DNA of 64,000 nucleotides. It comes from a virus (Duplodnaviria > Caudoviricetes). Location of the stretch: positions 1 through 64,000 of the IMG/VR virus record IMGVR_UViG_3300001598_001658. One strand, 5' to 3'. The translations under genes and the position numbers were made by a program. The notes beneath the pieces are model-generated. The model worked only from the letters and a program-made list of their open reading frames with translations. It was not told where the DNA came from and searched no databases. Shown piece after piece: positions 4,327-62,658 of the stretch; position 1 is the first letter of the stretch; each line of letters begins with the position of its first letter.

Positions 4327-5796
4327 TTGGAAAAGACACAGCTCATAATGCCCAATTGGCGCGTTATGTATTACTATGACAAACATTTAAAAGGCCACCC
4401 TTATATTATTAATCAGGATGTTGGTATTGATAAAAGAAATGTTACCGCAATTGAAGGAGGAATCTATTCGCCTGAACTCGGTAATATTGTTGATACAGAC
4501 AAAGATCTCAGAGAATATTCTTGTTATTGTGGCAAATTAAATTCAAGATTGTACGAAGGTGATATCTGTGAAGAATGTGGAACAGTGTGTCATGAAACAT
4601 TTGGTGCTGATCTTGAAAAATATGGTTGGATCTTATTAGGCGAATACTATATTATCCAGCCGGATGCATATGAAATGATTAAGTCTGTGATAGGAAATAA
4701 AAATCTTGAAAGAATTCTGAAGTATCAAGTGAATATTGATATCGAAGGAAATCCAATTGATATCCAAAAAACAGATCCTAAAGCTTCACCTTATCAGAAT
4801 ATAGGTATGATGGAGTTTAAGAAAAATTTCGCAGAAATCATGAACTATTATGCAATGCTTAAACCAGCAAAAGCTGATAAAGCAAAATTCTTAATAAGTA
4901 TGAAACAGAGAATTTTCACAAATGTAATTCCTGTATTCTCAAACTTGTTGAGACCAGCATATGCGAGTTCTAAAAAGAAAATGTTTAGTTACGATAAATT
5001 AAATGGTAACTTAACAAAAATTCTTAGCAATGCGAAGATGTTGAAAAACGGAACAAGTAAGAGATTAAGAGATGGTGGTGAAAAGACTATTCTCTGGTCA
5101 ATTCAGGAAGAATTGCAAGCATATTATAGTATGACAATTTCGGCTAAACTTTCTGGTAAGCATAAAGTCATTCGTTATACTATTTTATCAGCTCGTACAT
5201 CTTTCAGTTCCCGTTCAGTTATCGCATCTTTGACTGATGCAAAATATCTTGGTATGGATCATATTATTATGAACTATAAACAGTTCATCGAAATTTATAC
5301 ATTGTTAATTCTTAACTGTATGATGAGAGGAATTGGAAATCCGAGATTTAGAACGATGACATTATTTGAATTGATTGCGTATTTAAAGAAAGCAAAATTT
5401 TCAGATACTGTAGATGAAAGCATTTATTCGATTTGTGAATTCTTAATTAAGAATCATAAACAGGGTCTTTGGGTAATTCTTAATCGAAACCCTACAATGG
5501 ACCTTGGATCGCAGCAGTGCTTAAAAGTAGTTCATGTTATTAAAGATGCAAATAGTCATGTTATGAATGTACCTTTAACAAGTCTTTCATCTATGACTGG
5601 TGACTTTGATGGTGACGTATTGAATGTATATGCATTAATGGAACTCCAGGTTGCAAAAGCTTATATCGAAGGATTCTCTCCTAGATATTTACTTTTGGAT
5701 CGTACTGGTGATTCGTTGATCGATACAAACTTTATCCCTATCAAAGATCATTATACAACTGCAAATTCATTCTTAACGCCAATTGCTACTAAATAA
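4327..5796 (+). CDS. Phage RNA polymerase beta' N-terminal subunit (probably non-virion RNAP)
   Basis: Zn ribbon YSCYCG...CEECG, SSRSVI, NRNPT and catalytic GDFDGD; TTG start with GGAGG RBS. Confidence 0.9.
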   Translation: MEKTQLIMPNWRVMYYYDKHLKGHPYIINQDVGIDKRNVTAIEGGIYSPELGNIVDTDKDLREYSCYCGKLNSRLYEGDICEECGTVCHETFGADLEKYGWILLGEYYIIQPDAYEMIKSVIGNKNLERILKYQVNIDIEGNPIDIQKTDPKASPYQNIGMMEFKKNFAEIMNYYAMLKPAKADKAKFLISMKQRIFTNVIPVFSNLLRPAYASSKKKMFSYDKLNGNLTKILSNAKMLKNGTSKRLRDGGEKTILWSIQEELQAYYSMTISAKLSGKHKVIRYTILSARTSFSSRSVIASLTDAKYLGMDHIIMNYKQFIEIYTLLILNCMMRGIGNPRFRTMTLFELIAYLKKAKFSDTVDESIYSICEFLIKNHKQGLWVILNRNPTMDLGSQQCLKVVHVIKDANSHVMNVPLTSLSSMTGDFDGDVLNVYALMELQVAKAYIEGFSPRYLLLDRTGDSLIDTNFIPIKDHYTTANSFLTPIATK

Positions 5797-33909: not shown

Positions 33910-34172
33910 GATGATACAATCAATGGCCGAACATTAATTGATTGTTCATCACGCGCTGCCGGCTTCGGTACGCAGAAACTATACTTAGTTATCTGTGGTG
34001 TGACCGCAATTATTATTGTCCGTTGAGATTCCGACCTGCTGCTATAAGCGGCCATTGCCGGATGTTGGGCGTCTTATACCGACGGCGTTTAAGGAGATTC
34101 GTCTAGATAGTTGATGAGTAGAGTATATAGATACTTGTTGATCCTGAGACTATTTAAGCGAATGTTCGGCCA
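33910..34172 (+). ncRNA. Unassigned structured RNA with a long-range pseudoknot
   Basis: 5' hairpin 33910-33950 whose loop region (33924-33935) is exactly complementary to 34161-34172. Several internal helices have G-U pairs that favour the + strand. GC content is elevated. Confidence 0.65.
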
Positions 34173-34186
34173 CCTATTTGTTTTAT

Positions 34187-34251
34187 GTGAACCTGTGGAA
34201 CCCTATAAAAGGATTTTCCCCTCCCACCCGTCCTTTTATCCACAGGTTCAC
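34187..34251 (+). ncRNA. Long hairpin with a C-rich loop
   Basis: GTGAACCTGTGGA/TCCACAGGTTCAC plus TAAAAGGA/TCCTTTTA; loop TTTTCCCCTCCCACCCG. Confidence 0.55.
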
Positions 34252-34365
34252 TTTATATATTTTTTGGATATAATAGATACTGTACAAAACGCCATGTGAT
34301 TGTCAATCACTCCATTGTTAAAGAAATAGAAAACTCTAAATTTGTACAGTATCTTTTTTATATAA

Positions 34366-34438
34366 GACTCTTTAGCTCAGTCGGTAGAGCAACGGACTGT
34401 TAATCCGTGTGTCGTTGGTTCAAACCCAACAAGGGTCG
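34366..34438 (+). tRNA. tRNA-Asn (GTT)
   Basis: Full cloverleaf: GACTCTT/AAGGGTC acceptor, ACGGA-CTGTTAA-TCCGT anticodon arm, TTCAAAC T-loop; no encoded CCA. Confidence 0.95.
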
Positions 34439-34657
34439 ATACTTTCCTCATTTAGTGGGGCACTGCTATTTGAGGGACGTGGGGTTACGCCGATTGTTAC
34501 CACGTACAAATACAAACAATTATGAGCTGTGACTCTCACTCAATTTTGATCATTTGGGGGTTAGAAGAGTCCGATCAAACTCATGACGCTGATACACGAT
34601 AGGTATTATATTTCTATATATTTTTTAGTATATAGAAATATCGGCACCACTTTATGT

Positions 34658-34730
34658 GGGCTTTTAGCTCAGTCGGTAGAGCAACGCCCTTTTAAGGCGT
34701 GGGTCAACAGTTCAAATCTGTTAAAGCTCA
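34658..34730 (+). tRNA. tRNA-Lys (TTT)
   Basis: GGGCTTT/AAAGCTC acceptor, ACGCC-CTTTTAA-GGCGT anticodon arm, TTCAAAT T-loop; no encoded CCA. Confidence 0.95.
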
Positions 34731-34777
34731 TAACTCTAGAATTACCTTCCCTTTTATTTTAGAGTGTCAAAGAACCT

Positions 34778-34815
34778 GTGCTCCTCTTTTTACAGAGGAG
34801 CACTTTTATTTTTTT
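34778..34815 (+). terminator. Terminator of the RNA cluster
   Basis: GTGCTCCTCT...AGAGGAGCAC plus T-tract. Confidence 0.8.
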
Positions 34816-34877
34816 ATTAACTTTTTAACTTATCTATATATTATATATAGAAGAAAAATTATATAAAGGAGTTATAT

Positions 34878-57940: not shown

Positions 57941-57993
57941 ATAACATAGACATGAGGATATGCCCTCATGTCTATTATTTTTTGGAGGAAAGT

Positions 57994-58680
57994 ATGATAG
58001 TCGATGTAGATGAAGAAAAATATAAATATTTAAAAATTGGTTTATGCGATTATTCTTTATTAAGACAAATAATAAAAAAACAATATGATCATTGTAAAGA
58101 ATATCCATCTGATATTAAAATGATTAGAAAATTTTTTACAAATTATCCACAATCCGGTTTTGGATCTCCTGAGGTTGAAAGATTTATACAATATGTGCAG
58201 ATGTTTATCAACGCATTTGTTCCAAATCCAGTTACACAAAGAAATTCAACAAATATATTTAATGCTATATATTCATATGGAAATGATTCACACGATAATA
58301 TATATTTTAATATGCTTAAAGAAAGATTTGATTCAACAAACTCAGAAATTATAAAATCTTTAAATCAATATTTTGATTTTGAAACAGATAAAGTTAAGTT
58401 GTCAACATTTTATAAAATTCCTGAATATTTTGAATATCATATAAAACGAGCATTAAATTTAACTAGATTCGATAGAGAAAATTTTATGAAATCAGCATTT
58501 TATAAAACCTATATATCTGGATCTTATATCAATCCTACATCTGTAGATTTTGATTCATACGATATTAAAATGAATCAAAAATATTGGGATAAATATACTT
58601 TGGAAGGCGTAGCTGAATTAATAAACGAAACACCCATGACATCGTTAGCTGGAGTAGAAAAATTCACAAGAGGCATTTAA
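57994..58680 (+). CDS. Hypothetical protein
   Basis: GGAGG RBS before ATG 57994. Confidence 0.65.
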   Translation: MIVDVDEEKYKYLKIGLCDYSLLRQIIKKQYDHCKEYPSDIKMIRKFFTNYPQSGFGSPEVERFIQYVQMFINAFVPNPVTQRNSTNIFNAIYSYGNDSHDNIYFNMLKERFDSTNSEIIKSLNQYFDFETDKVKLSTFYKIPEYFEYHIKRALNLTRFDRENFMKSAFYKTYISGSYINPTSVDFDSYDIKMNQKYWDKYTLEGVAELINETPMTSLAGVEKFTRGI

Positions 58681-58688
58681 AAATAAAA

Positions 58689-58713
58689 CTCTACCCCATA
58701 TATAGGGTAGAGT
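58689..58713. terminator. Terminator between convergent genes
   Basis: CTCTACCC-CATATATA-GGGTAGAG. Confidence 0.7.
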
Positions 58714-58721
58714 ATATTTTA

Positions 58722-59435
58722 TTATTCTTTTCGTTTTGGAGTTAAGACACGACTTTTTAAACATGCACCCTGCATGAATGTTCGAACAGTTTCCAATGAT
58801 TGAGAATCATTTAAATTAACATTACAATCACTATAATTAACCATTCCATGCTGTTCAATTTGATTCAACATTTTCATTTTACCAGGCATGTTATCTGCAC
58901 GAATAGTAAGCATCTCTTTTAATGTCTCAGTTTGATTGGTTGTAACGAGAGATGATGTTTGCATATCACCAATAGATGCAGCTTTACTATCACCTGTTAC
59001 CTGACCAGTTAATGGGTTACTGTGTTCTGTTGTACCGGCTGAGAAGTTTTTATGTTGTAAGAACTGTTGCATCTTACGAATATAAATAACTACTACAGGA
59101 ACAGGTGTAGCTGTAACAACAGGATGTTCTGGATCATCAGGATTAAGATGTGGAAAAGCAACATATTCTCTTAATTTAACATTATATTTTTTAGCAACTT
59201 TTTCAATATGTGAAATATCTACTACTTTATCGGTAGCTGTACTTGATTGATCGAGATCAACTGAAATATGAGTTTTAGCTGGATCTTCGTACATATTTCT
59301 CATAAAGATATCGAAGTCTTTATCAGACATTGTTGAAAATCTATATTTCCAAGGTTCAATATTTACCCCACTAGGATCGAGATCTTTAATCAATTGTAAT
59401 ATCTGTGCTTCGGCTTTCTTTCTTTTATCATTCAT
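58722..59435 (-). CDS. Phage RNA polymerase beta extreme C-terminal fragment (probably virion RNAP)
   Basis: YIRKMQQFLQHK, NPLTGQVTGDSK, IGDMQ, EMLTIRADN (compare bacterial beta EMLTVKSDD). Confidence 0.8.
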   Translation of the reverse strand: MNDKRKKAEAQILQLIKDLDPSGVNIEPWKYRFSTMSDKDFDIFMRNMYEDPAKTHISVDLDQSSTATDKVVDISHIEKVAKKYNVKLREYVAFPHLNPDDPEHPVVTATPVPVVVIYIRKMQQFLQHKNFSAGTTEHSNPLTGQVTGDSKAASIGDMQTSSLVTTNQTETLKEMLTIRADNMPGKMKMLNQIEQHGMVNYSDCNVNLNDSQSLETVRTFMQGACLKSRVLTPKRKE

Positions 59436-59515
59436 ATTATAGCCTCTCAATATTTATCTATATTTAATTGTCGTTTGTATTTTTATAAAATCTGTATCAA
59501 ACACCTAATATAAAT

Positions 59516-59532
59516 TTATATTATTATTTGAA
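59516..59532 (+). promoter_or_regulatory. Putative early promoter of the large ncRNA
   Basis: TTATATTAT-N5-GAA matches the recurring motif. Confidence 0.5.
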
Positions 59533-60398
59533 ACAGATAATTGATTTCTGTTAATCCTTGATGTGAGTAAAATCACACATGGTCCTATGAACCTGATAGG
59601 TATGAGTACCGTCAGTAAAAATCATAGGAAAATATCTTCTGAGGAGAACTCAGGGTATTAGTGAAGTAGAAAGGTTTGTCTGCGTGAGAATCCGCACGTA
59701 TCTAGTAGTTTACTTTTGAAACACTTTATCCTTCATATCCAAAAGAGATTTCGCCCGATGTCTTAGACCAAAAGTGTCAAGACTAGGTACAAAAGAGTGG
59801 AATAACGGTGAGCGTATGTCCACAGTGTGATCCCGAAAGGGAATATGAATTATTAGCCCGAAAGGGTAGGATTAAAACGCTAGAAACGTCAATGCTGGTA
59901 GATGGGGTGTTGGCGCTAAAAACCTAGAAGCTCGATAAAAAGAGTGTTTATAGGTGACTGATGTAACGGAGGGTAGCTCGAGATTTCCTAAGTGATGTTT
60001 CTGTTTGATCGTTGATCGGATAGTTTAGATTTGCTATTTTGCGACATATTTCGCTAATAGTGAATCGCATTATATAGGAATTTAAAAATTCGGGTACAAG
60101 CGAACCGGCGCAGAGAGTCCATCACAAGAAAAGCAGAGTATGATCACGTGTCGTCGGAAATGCCGAGTATATTCGAACCTGGCTTGGCTATGCAAAAGCC
60201 TCCCAGGAGCCATGTTAATGTTTCCCTGAGGACGAGTGTTAGGGGTTGCGAAATCTTAGCTATAAGAAAGTAGTGTAAAGTGTGAAGAATAGTTGGATGC
60301 ATAATCCATCGATTTCATCAACCAGATGAATAGAGAAATGTCATATCAGCCGAGCACAGAGCCAAATCCGGAGGGCTCTGTGTTTGGTATTGGATATG
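59530..60398 (+). ncRNA. Large ornate structured RNA, GOLLD/ROOL-like
   Basis: ~870 nt with no ORF in the track and elevated GC. More than 12 helices, including GAAA tetraloops and long-range pairs. Closing hairpin followed by a U-tract. Confidence 0.75.
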
Positions 60399-60582
60399 TT
60401 TTATTTTTTTTATATTTTTTGAATCTTTATTATTCAAATATATTATATATAGAATGCGTTATTTAAGGAGTTTAAAATGGATAAAAATATAGAATCGTTT
60501 TATAATTTAAAATTTTATATTTTATAAAACTTAATATTATACAACATATAAAGAAAATAAATAAACAATATAGGAGAAAATA

Positions 60583-62658
60583 ATGAATGAAGCAAAAATA
60601 ACAAAACCCGTTGTTATGGAAATCAATACTGCTGATTTCACTAGAAAAGACAAATTAAAAGGTGAAGTTCAAACGTATGGACAAAAAGCTTATTCGAAAC
60701 TTTATGATTCTTTATGGAATTATATTTTCTTAGATTATAAAAGAAAAGATAATTTAATAAAAGTTGTGAGTATAAACGAAGCGAATGAACCAGTGTATGC
60801 GCATATGACTGCTGCAGAACTTTTGATTCATCTTATCTTTTGGAAACCATATGTAATTTACTCAAAATGTCTTAAGAGGAAAGTCGTTATCAAATCTGAT
60901 ACATTCTATAATCTTGAGAATTTTGATAAAAAGAAAATTACAAAAATTCTTAAAGATTTAGTGAAAGAGTTTTTACCAGATGCTGAAAATCGTCCAAATG
61001 GTATTAATGAACTTTCATATAATGTATCTTTAACAATTGATGATTTCTGTGAACTTATGAATTCTTATTGTGCAATTGCATCAAATACAATTTCACTTTA
61101 TGATATTCATCAGTTGGAAAAAAGAAGCCCTGAATTTGCTGATTGTTTGAATACACAGCTCGATGAATCTTTACCAACAAAGACAATTGAACAACAGTTG
61201 AAAAAAGGTGAAAGAAAAACAATTAAAGCTATTCTTGATGATAACAAATCATCTTTGGTAAATTATATTAAAGGTGGTCGTTTGACATCAGATCAGTTTA
61301 CACAAATGTTTTATGCAGTAGGTCCTCGTACTGATGTAGATAAAACAATTCTTCCGAAATTGATTAAAGGAAACTTCTTGAAAGGATATCAGTGTCCATC
61401 AGACGCATATATGGATGCTATTACAGGACGCGATGCTCAGATTCTTAAACACATTACGGTTCGCGATTCTGGTTATCTTTCGAGAAAAATTAATCTTTCT
61501 AATCTTAATACAAAGATCAATTATGCAATTGATGACTGTCACACACAACATACAGTTGCATATTATGTAGAAACAGAAGATCATCTTCAGTCTATTGATC
61601 TTAAATACATTGTAAAAGATAATGGAAAATTGTATCTTGTGCATGCAAGCAAAGATAAGGATCTTATTGGAAAAGTAGTACAACTGAGATCTCATATCGT
61701 ATGTGCGCTTCCTGAAGGCGAAGTGTGTATGACCTGTTTTGGAGAAAAAGCAAAACGATTAGCCGGAACAAACATCGGTGGACTCCCTGCTATCAAATTC
61801 GCAAACCCTATTTCCAAACGTTTGATGCGCGCTAAGCACTTTACTACTACTAACTCTGTTGATGTAAAATCTGAATACATGAGCAAATACTTTAATATTG
61901 AATCTAGTAAACTTTATTTCAAACCTGAAATGAAGAATAAAGAAGTCTTTGTTTGTGTTGATCGTGATATTATCGAAGATATTATGTCTGGAGCTACAGA
62001 TACAGAAGATGAATCGGTCGACTCTTCAACACCAATTGAATCAATTACAATTATGGATGGTGAAGAAAGATATACTATTGAATGTGAAGGTTTGTTCTTA
62101 GTTTTAACAAGTGAAATTTTGAATGAATCGAGCAAGTTTATTATGGAATATGATTCTGAAGAGGCATTAATTCCTGTAACTAAATTTGATAACGATACGC
62201 CTTTCTTCAATATGATTATTGTATCAGAAGCGGTTCAGCTTTATTTGAAACAAATCAAACGTATTATTGACTCATCTAAAACAAAAACATATTCAACTCC
62301 ATCTGCATTTATGAAAGATATTTCTGATGTTTTGATTGATATGGGTATTGCTGGTACATCTATTATTAACATCGAAACACTTATCTATCAGTTGGTGAGA
62401 AAACCGGATAAATTGTATGAAAGACCTGATTTCACAAAGCCAGATCCTGAAATCACAATTCTCCCTATTTCATCATCGATTCAGAATTCTGATATTTATA
62501 CAGCATTCGGATTTGAAAAACTTAAGCAACAGGTAACAAATGTTGATTCATTTATGAAGAAAGGAACTGGAATCTATGATCCTTTATTTAAAGTAAATAA
62601 ACCAAAGCATCTTATTCCTGTTGATAAAGAAACAATTGCTAAGGCTTTAGAAAAATAA
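60583..62658 (+). CDS. Phage RNA polymerase beta' C-terminal subunit (probably non-virion RNAP)
   Basis: GNFLKG, bridge-helix-like GRDAQILKHITVRDSGYLSRK, DDCHT, LRSHIVC...VCMTCFG, LMRAKH. Confidence 0.88.
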   Translation: MNEAKITKPVVMEINTADFTRKDKLKGEVQTYGQKAYSKLYDSLWNYIFLDYKRKDNLIKVVSINEANEPVYAHMTAAELLIHLIFWKPYVIYSKCLKRKVVIKSDTFYNLENFDKKKITKILKDLVKEFLPDAENRPNGINELSYNVSLTIDDFCELMNSYCAIASNTISLYDIHQLEKRSPEFADCLNTQLDESLPTKTIEQQLKKGERKTIKAILDDNKSSLVNYIKGGRLTSDQFTQMFYAVGPRTDVDKTILPKLIKGNFLKGYQCPSDAYMDAITGRDAQILKHITVRDSGYLSRKINLSNLNTKINYAIDDCHTQHTVAYYVETEDHLQSIDLKYIVKDNGKLYLVHASKDKDLIGKVVQLRSHIVCALPEGEVCMTCFGEKAKRLAGTNIGGLPAIKFANPISKRLMRAKHFTTTNSVDVKSEYMSKYFNIESSKLYFKPEMKNKEVFVCVDRDIIEDIMSGATDTEDESVDSSTPIESITIMDGEERYTIECEGLFLVLTSEILNESSKFIMEYDSEEALIPVTKFDNDTPFFNMIIVSEAVQLYLKQIKRIIDSSKTKTYSTPSAFMKDISDVLIDMGIAGTSIINIETLIYQLVRKPDKLYERPDFTKPDPEITILPISSSIQNSDIYTAFGFEKLKQQVTNVDSFMKKGTGIYDPLFKVNKPKHLIPVDKETIAKALEK

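Follow-up and report, generated by a model that had tools for sequence, protein, structure and literature searches.

Background

GOLLD assembles into an RNA-only cage of 14 copies (a 14-mer), and to our knowledge few functional RNAs that still lack a known job are as large as GOLLD and ROOL. GOLLD RNAs are large (many members exceed 800 nt) and ornate, are borne by phages and prophages and contain GNRA loops and A-minor or kissing contacts, with a 3' region that has been described as universally conserved and a location by tRNA genes or tRNA islands that is frequent, not obligatory (PMC12286853). ROOL RNAs are large structured RNAs of phages and prophages as well, which are sometimes abundantly expressed and form RNA-only cages (PMC12286853; PMC5737381).

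The locus described here comes from an uncultured, AT-rich gut jumbo phage, and had been read as a giant RNA of the GOLLD/ROOL class with its own promoter (hereafter the original prediction). The window is the 64 kb stretch of DNA that was analysed, which forms the first part of a 145-kb IMG/VR virus record; CheckV estimates the completeness of this record at ~51%, and it is therefore a fragment of the genome of an AT-rich (30% G+C) jumbo phage. Relatives of the phage come only from gut and other metagenome assemblies, one of them (72% identical) being part of a 186-kb contig that was assigned to a metagenome-assembled genome (MAG) of the Anaeroplasmataceae, and none were found by protein-anchored scans of IMG/VR. 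The features of the locus are collected in Table 1.

Table 1. Features of the locus, with positions counted from the first nucleotide of the window
Feature	Position	Strand	Basis or remarks
Left flank, small RNAP subunit gene (beta C-terminal-like)	58722..59450	-	242 aa by ORF, 237 aa as called
TATATTAT promoter element of the RNA unit	59517..59524	+	one of 13 intergenic sense copies; predicted start near G59530
Predicted ~880-nt non-coding RNA	59530..60411	+	no ORF, 41% G+C, MFE z, RNA-library contigs, no Rfam family
Predicted 5'-terminal hairpin, 6 bp, two bases past the predicted start	59532..59552	+	mean pair probability 0.87
Predicted branched 5' hairpin, 8 bp + 5 bp + 4 bp, UGAG loop	59583..59629	+	P 0.94-0.98; contains the CCTATGA/TCATAGG helix
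Predicted 10-bp long-range helix closing the central domain	59745..59754 (5' strand) / 60248..60257 (3' strand)	+	P 0.98
Predicted twin GAAA-tetraloop hairpins UCCC-GAAA-GGGA and GCCC-GAAA-GGGU	59831..59867	+	direct repeat, starts 25 nt apart; P 0.93-0.97
Best-defined predicted sub-domain: two stacked helices around a CCUAAG / UAUAGG internal loop	59985..60080	+	P 0.92-0.98; local z=-3.2
Intrinsic-terminator-like end: 6 bp + 15 bp hairpin 60342-60398, then U-tract 60399-60411	60342..60411	+	
TATATTAT promoter of the downstream RNAP gene, ancestral for the intergenic region	60439..60446	+	aligns with the single promoter of L002, L004, L009 and L010
Right flank, non-virion RNAP beta'-C-like subunit gene	60583..62658	+	691 aa; phrog_3015, E=2.5e-63

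Results

Search for known RNA families and homologues

The complete 145-kb record was searched directly with the Infernal covariance models of GOLLD (RF02032, with 21 candidates scored) and ROOL (RF03087), neither of which gave a match at E<=10, and the class assignment of the original prediction falls with this result. The positive control covers ROOL only: on plasmid pMP118 of Ligilactobacillus salivarius the ROOL model recovered a full-length match at 178263-178805 with 130.4 bits (the Rfam gathering scores are 150 bits for GOLLD and 99.1 bits for ROOL). The ordered sequence blocks described earlier as GOLLD-like are all present in the sequence, but RF02032 does not bear out their likeness to GOLLD. 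A cmscan of the whole window with 4227 Rfam 15 families at gathering score returned two tRNAs only (34366-34438 and 34658-34730) and nothing on the block, and with lax filters the region 59300-60600 gave only noise at E<=10 (e.g. frnS with 24 bits on the terminator). Group I and group II introns, RNase P, tmRNA, 6S RNA and self-cleaving ribozymes were not among the Rfam matches listed at E<=10, nor was there a match to RF01998 (a piece of a group II intron). The block was also considered as an intron, a reading which was rejected since the gene on either side is intact in all relatives and no Rfam intron model matches.

Homologues of the block were sought in 50,697 phage records and 72,556 plasmids using blastn with 'distant' settings, and none were found. 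Exact-pattern scans of IMG/VR and the JGI metagenomes gave chance seeds only (as assessed with blastn and nhmmer), and BLAST searches of the two MAGs with related phage contigs, of 307 genomes of the order of the MAG and of 399 of its class (~700 Bacilli) gave only short AT-rich chance matches. A covariance model built from the single sequence 59974-60097 recovered only itself when run on the own record, on both MAGs and on 16 loci, and there is no second copy of the block in the own record. Membership of the GOLLD or ROOL family is rejected and a resemblance in kind stands; as judged by these searches, the block is probably an orphan outside every catalogued Rfam family.

The position away from the tRNA cluster was predicted correctly, with the nearest tRNAs (34366-34730) about 25 kb off. 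The rest of the 145-kb record contains tRNAs as its only Rfam matches, near 122-124 kb. The two tRNAs of the window lie within its second-largest ORF-free, G+C-richer gap (33920-34877, 38% G+C), and on the minus strand of L141 (17900-19600, ~121.9-123.6 kb of the own record) three Rfam tRNAs are separated and followed by ORF-free stretches of higher G+C content. An ORF-free region of ~850 nt near the 122 kb tRNA cluster is unrelated in sequence to the block (local score 22, vs a shuffle mean of 23) and has no Rfam match.

A non-coding block between two RNA polymerase genes

As had been noted, the block is a G+C-enriched, ORF-free element in a compact AT-rich genome: positions 59530-60400 have 41.0% G+C compared with 30.1% for the window, which is the maximum among all 870-nt windows, and the gap 59451-60582 is the longest in the window without an ORF of at least 80 aa. 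The G+C enrichment by itself could reflect a foreign origin of the block. The longest ORF within the block has 52 aa (table 11), and no long frames are open under code 4 or with either TAG or TAA read as glutamine. Stop codons in the three plus-strand frames number 20, 21 and 22, where 20.5 are expected from base composition, with no frame favoured. As no frame is open under four codes and stops occur at the random expectation, the block is non-coding, and represents neither a recoded nor a lightly damaged gene. An exact look-up of nine spurious block ORFs in a protein collection found none on record. The plus strand of the block has 25% G vs 16% C.

The block lies between two divergent RNAP subunit genes, in agreement with the original prediction (phrog_3233 on the minus strand to the left, phrog_3015 on the plus strand to the right). 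The left gene matches phrog_3233 'RNA polymerase beta subunit' with E=1.9e-38, phmmer aligns its product weakly with residues ~1220-1310 of bacterial beta (the C-terminal part), and the gene is syntenic in all relatives examined. A profile of 17 homologues of the right-flank protein matches the non-virion RNAP (nvRNAP) of AR9 (chain 7s00_D, 6.7e-50) and gp74 of phiKZ (7ogp_D, 4.1e-27). Judged by these similarities, both flanking genes are split multisubunit RNAP genes of the phiKZ/AR9 type, which belong to the non-virion enzyme. Further to the left, a perfect bidirectional terminator-like palindrome (58688-58713) is located between the convergent genes 57952-58680 (plus) and 58722-59450 (minus).

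The block as an insertion at a cargo site

Comparison with the relatives revealed a point which the original prediction had missed, namely that the block is an insertion. In seven syntenic relatives (L002, L004, L009, L010, L234, L235 and one further contig), with RNAP subunits ~70-81% identical to those of the window, the site is empty and the divergent RNAP genes are separated by 156-190 nt. Other relatives carry other cargo at the same site: L143, the 72%-identical relative in the Anaeroplasmataceae MAG, has a promoter, a 74-codon gene and a terminator, and in L005, L006, L011 and L144 (about 61-62% identity) there is a RCC1/WD40_RLD-like gene. Searches with blastn and tblastn detected no likeness of the block to the cargo of these relatives. 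The comparison shows that the block was inserted specifically in this lineage, at a hot-spot for cargo, and that it brought a promoter copy and a terminator with it.

The L143 cassette (4380-4830) contains TATATTAT promoters, a strong AAAGGAGG ribosome-binding site in front of the 74-codon gene and a terminator with a GC stem. The RCC1/WD40_RLD-like gene has ~371 codons (L011:2752-3867; L005:2985-3850; L144:1127-2242), and is split into pieces of 77 and 201 codons in L005 and L006.

Promoter and terminator

The motif TATATTAT is present in 35 copies in the window, compared with 19.5 expected, a number reached in 0 of 100 shuffles. Thirteen of these copies are intergenic and in sense orientation, mostly with a Shine-Dalgarno sequence and a start codon following within ~50 nt. 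Two of the thirteen are found at 60439 and at 59517-59524, the latter where a phage-type promoter of the RNA had been proposed. The copy at 59517 has no counterpart in the four aligned relatives, the short intergenic regions of which were compared with both edges of the gap; their single promoter aligns with the copy at 60439, and the copy at 59517 therefore came with the insert. Because TATATTAT also precedes the gene for the beta'-C subunit of the nvRNAP, and this enzyme cannot be the first to transcribe its own gene, early transcription of the block by the virion RNAP can reasonably be inferred.

The closing hairpin 60342-60398 with its U-tract (60399-60411) was found as described originally. 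Its 15-bp stem has a pair probability of 0.99, and the local z is -4.8 on the plus strand vs -2.8 on the minus strand, where three G-U pairs seen in the sequence weaken the hairpin.

The spacer between the RNA terminator and the RNAP gene contains a strong AAGGAG ribosome-binding site with a 16-codon mini-ORF (60466-60528, with ATG at 60478 and the stop codon at 60526-60528), which is absent from the corresponding position in the four aligned relatives. A single contig joint with low support in sequencing run X4 skips positions 60435-60567.

Predicted fold

The whole block folds with an MFE of -264 kcal/mol on the plus strand (z=-4.7 vs shuffles) and of -199 kcal/mol on the minus strand (z=-3.0). 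In 150-nt windows of the plus strand, local z reaches -3.6 (start at 59525), -3.2 (59975), -4.9 (60275) and -4.8 (60350), and is near 0 in several other windows inside the block; for the flanking genes it is mostly between +1 and -2. There are 126 predicted pairs with P>0.9, 12 of which are G-U. Pair probabilities of the long-range helices are mostly low to moderate (0.24-0.84), the exception being the 10-bp helix which closes the central domain (P=0.98); in a strain variant the innermost pair of this helix is broken and the adjacent pair becomes G-U. The model fold can be divided into five parts: the 5' hairpin, a 5' hairpin domain (59562-59715), a central multi-branched domain, two 3' hairpins, and the 6+15-bp terminal hairpin with the U-tract. 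As no homologues were found, the fold rests on one sequence and its strain variants.

The helices listed in the original prediction are all complementary at their positions and most are part of the MFE fold, with P of 0.93-0.99 for CCTATGA/TCATAGG, CTGAG/CTCAG, both GAAA hairpins, ACCTA/TAGGT and the closing hairpin, but two long-range helices are absent from it. One of these, TTAATCCT/AGGATTAA, is complementary yet does not appear in the predicted fold; the other, TAGAAACGTCA/TGATGTTTCTG (59881-59891/59993-60003), competes with a helix of P=0.97 (59992-59998/60067-60073), and the natural change G59994A would disrupt the TAGAAACGTCA/TGATGTTTCTG pairing and keeps, or even improves, the competing helix. 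A candidate pseudoknot between 59732-59738 and 59843-59849 was rejected, as the natural change A59848T would break it. No tRNA- or tmRNA-like elements (ARAGORN), iterons or tandem repeats were detected inside the block.

The sub-domain 59985-60080 encloses hairpins at 60001-60023 and 60028-60066. The sequence of its CCUAAG/UAUAGG internal loop (helix 59985-59998/60067-60080) suggests a candidate receptor for a GAAA tetraloop, and the two GAAA hairpins lie 120-150 nt upstream of it. The strain-variant changes T59986C and A60076G convert the loop to CCUAAG/UAUGG, which we take to be the classic 11-nt GAAA-tetraloop receptor of the textbooks.

RNA-library cover and strain variants

Sequence cover of the locus was obtained from Logan contigs of four runs, which carry no strand, end or level information. 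In metatranscriptome run X1 two contigs of 340 and 430 nt (depth 7-9, 95-97% identity) match positions 59550-59888 and 59868-60292, and there are zero contigs on the flanks (58700-59482 and 60353-61300). Runs X2-X4, which are probably DNA or are of unrecorded type, have contigs on both the block and the flanks; these are short and represent strain variants of ~93-98% identity. The sampled-word shares in the runs are 0.04-0.17, and the whole block is bridged in 0 of runs X1-X4. With regard to the discrete transcript on which the original prediction depends, the X1 contigs lie on the block only, although RNA libraries can contain DNA. Cover of the block only is what would be expected for a stable and abundant RNA, and points away from the absence of a transcript that would have counted against the original prediction.

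The block is conserved among strains. The variants differ from the window at 2.0-5.6% of positions in the RNA body (contigs within 59463-60292), at 6.5% over the terminator and downstream spacer (60330-60482) and at 4-7% in the flanking genes. For the left gene, 8/8 of the listed differences are in the third codon position, with only part of the differences listed. As the listed changes in the flank are all in the third position, neutral divergence is probably several-fold above that of the block, and the block is probably under purifying selection, as estimated from these partly listed differences.

When the 32 placed substitutions were compared with the MFE fold, 11 were at unpaired positions, 12 kept a pair and 9 broke one (9/21 at paired positions), and at pairs with P>0.9 ten kept and three broke the pair. 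The pair-keeping changes, which come from strain variants only, consist of one compensatory pair and 11 one-sided changes; the compensatory double change converts C59834-G59839, the pair closing the first GAAA loop, to U-A in X1, X3 and X4. Compared with 3000 random mutants with the same substitution spectrum, the natural variant gave p=0.053 for the energy on the reference structure and p=0.058 for broken pairs, with p=0.13 when only pairs of P>0.9 were counted as broken and p=0.19 for the refolded MFE. The natural variant thus preserves the modelled fold only marginally better than the random mutants do, which is suggestive rather than proof.

Discussion

Taken together, the data support, and do not prove, a discrete, non-coding and strongly folding unit on the plus strand with a phage-type promoter and terminator. 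We consider it probable, at roughly 60%, that the block was acquired horizontally as an accessory transcription unit, which gives rise to a folded non-coding RNA of ~880 nt from the plus strand. The TATATTAT element at 59517 would drive transcription from near position 59530, and the hairpin with its U-tract would stop it near 60411. The RNA would be made early, either by the injected virion polymerase or by the host enzyme, and would accumulate as a stable and highly base-paired molecule, which may be protected from decay by its 5' and 3' terminal hairpins. It would then act through its fold, with the twin GAAA tetraloops and the receptor-like loop providing tertiary or intermolecular docking as in the ROOL and GOLLD particles. 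By analogy with the protein cargo of the relatives at this site, our guess is that it could serve as a non-essential scaffold or decoy RNA in host take-over or counter-defence.

Alternatively, the cassette may be transcribed without adopting one global fold, and be either a precursor of several small RNAs or functional in its local hairpins only (the 5' domain, 59975-60095 and the 3' hairpins). The local z is significant in four windows only with values near 0 between them, and most long-range helices have P of 0.24-0.84, features which would suit such an arrangement, but the RNA-library contigs are continuous over 59550-60292, the centre is closed by the 10-bp long-range helix of P=0.98, and tRNA-like or known processing elements are absent (Rfam at E<=10, ARAGORN), and we regard this as unlikely, if deserving of serious consideration. 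Another reading of the block is decaying acquired cargo, i.e. a dead protein gene or the scar of a mobile element, which has no function and is transcribed via a retained promoter. Relatives do carry protein-coding cargo at this site, the higher G+C content could mark foreign DNA, and the homologue search was negative; against this, stops are at the random expectation in all three plus-strand frames with none favoured, tblastn shows no likeness to the relatives' cargo, the divergence of the block among strains is not above that of the neighbouring genes (the listed changes of which are all in third positions), and the loop-closing pair of a GAAA hairpin has undergone a compensatory change. Compact phage genomes also shed dead DNA quickly, and decay is in our view an improbable explanation.

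Two other readings carry much less weight. A stretch which is ORF-free, deviates in composition and lies between divergent genes could, instead of being an RNA gene, act at the DNA level as an origin of replication or as a site of binding or packaging, but this is very improbable given that the block contains no iterons or tandem repeats, that its folding is strand-asymmetric with G-U pairs in the terminator and a U-tract on one side, that the RNA-library contigs are confined to it, and that close relatives manage without it. Hardly credible at all is a very divergent GOLLD or ROOL that was missed by the Rfam models: for all the similar size, the phage setting, the ornate GNRA-rich appearance and the GOLLD-like blocks named in the original prediction, neither RF02032 nor RF03087 matches at E<=10 where the ROOL search does recover a true ROOL, tRNAs do not adjoin the block (the nearest are at 34366-34730), and the GOLLD model, which is built on the universally conserved 3' region (PMC12286853), finds nothing.

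If the block does encode a folded, horizontally acquired RNA, a bolder extension would see in it the first member of a new family of ornate RNAs of large size, which travel between jumbo phages as promoter-to-terminator cassettes, are made at the onset of infection and fold, possibly multimerising, via GAAA docking into a stable particle; its target would be the host or the nvRNAP of the phage, the genes of which flank the block. We consider this speculation something of a long shot. Where relatives have protein genes, the exchangeable cargo in this phage is a predicted structured RNA, which points to an accessory role at a stage of infection rather than to a core function. It lies off the tRNA islands and its promoter is probably an early one, which broadens the range of settings where RNAs of this kind should be sought; the value of the case is limited for now, this RNA being an orphan from an uncultured phage.

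Comparison with known systems

The block shares with GOLLD a comparable size and a phage setting, but differs in lacking a covariance-model match, tRNA neighbours and a detectable conserved 3' core, and in its occurrence at the level of a single species. Similarly, it resembles ROOL in kind as a large structured phage RNA, with a fold that is here predicted from sequence, whereas it has no match to the ROOL model, is ~300 nt longer than the 574 positions of that model and is distant from tRNA islands. The two GAAA hairpins and the CCUAAG opposite UAUAGG (UAUGG in the variant) are reminiscent of the GAAA tetraloop and 11-nt receptor of group I and II introns and RNase P; unlike these, the block has no model match and does not lie inside a gene, and its docking is a proposal from the loop sequences. 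The closest parallel in genomic organisation is with phage morons and accessory cassettes, which have their own promoter and terminator and show presence or absence between conserved neighbours, both of which apply here, and as with moron-type cassettes the same site carries other cargo in other relatives. What sets this locus apart from the morons is the cargo itself, which is a predicted non-coding RNA of ~880 nt in place of a protein gene.
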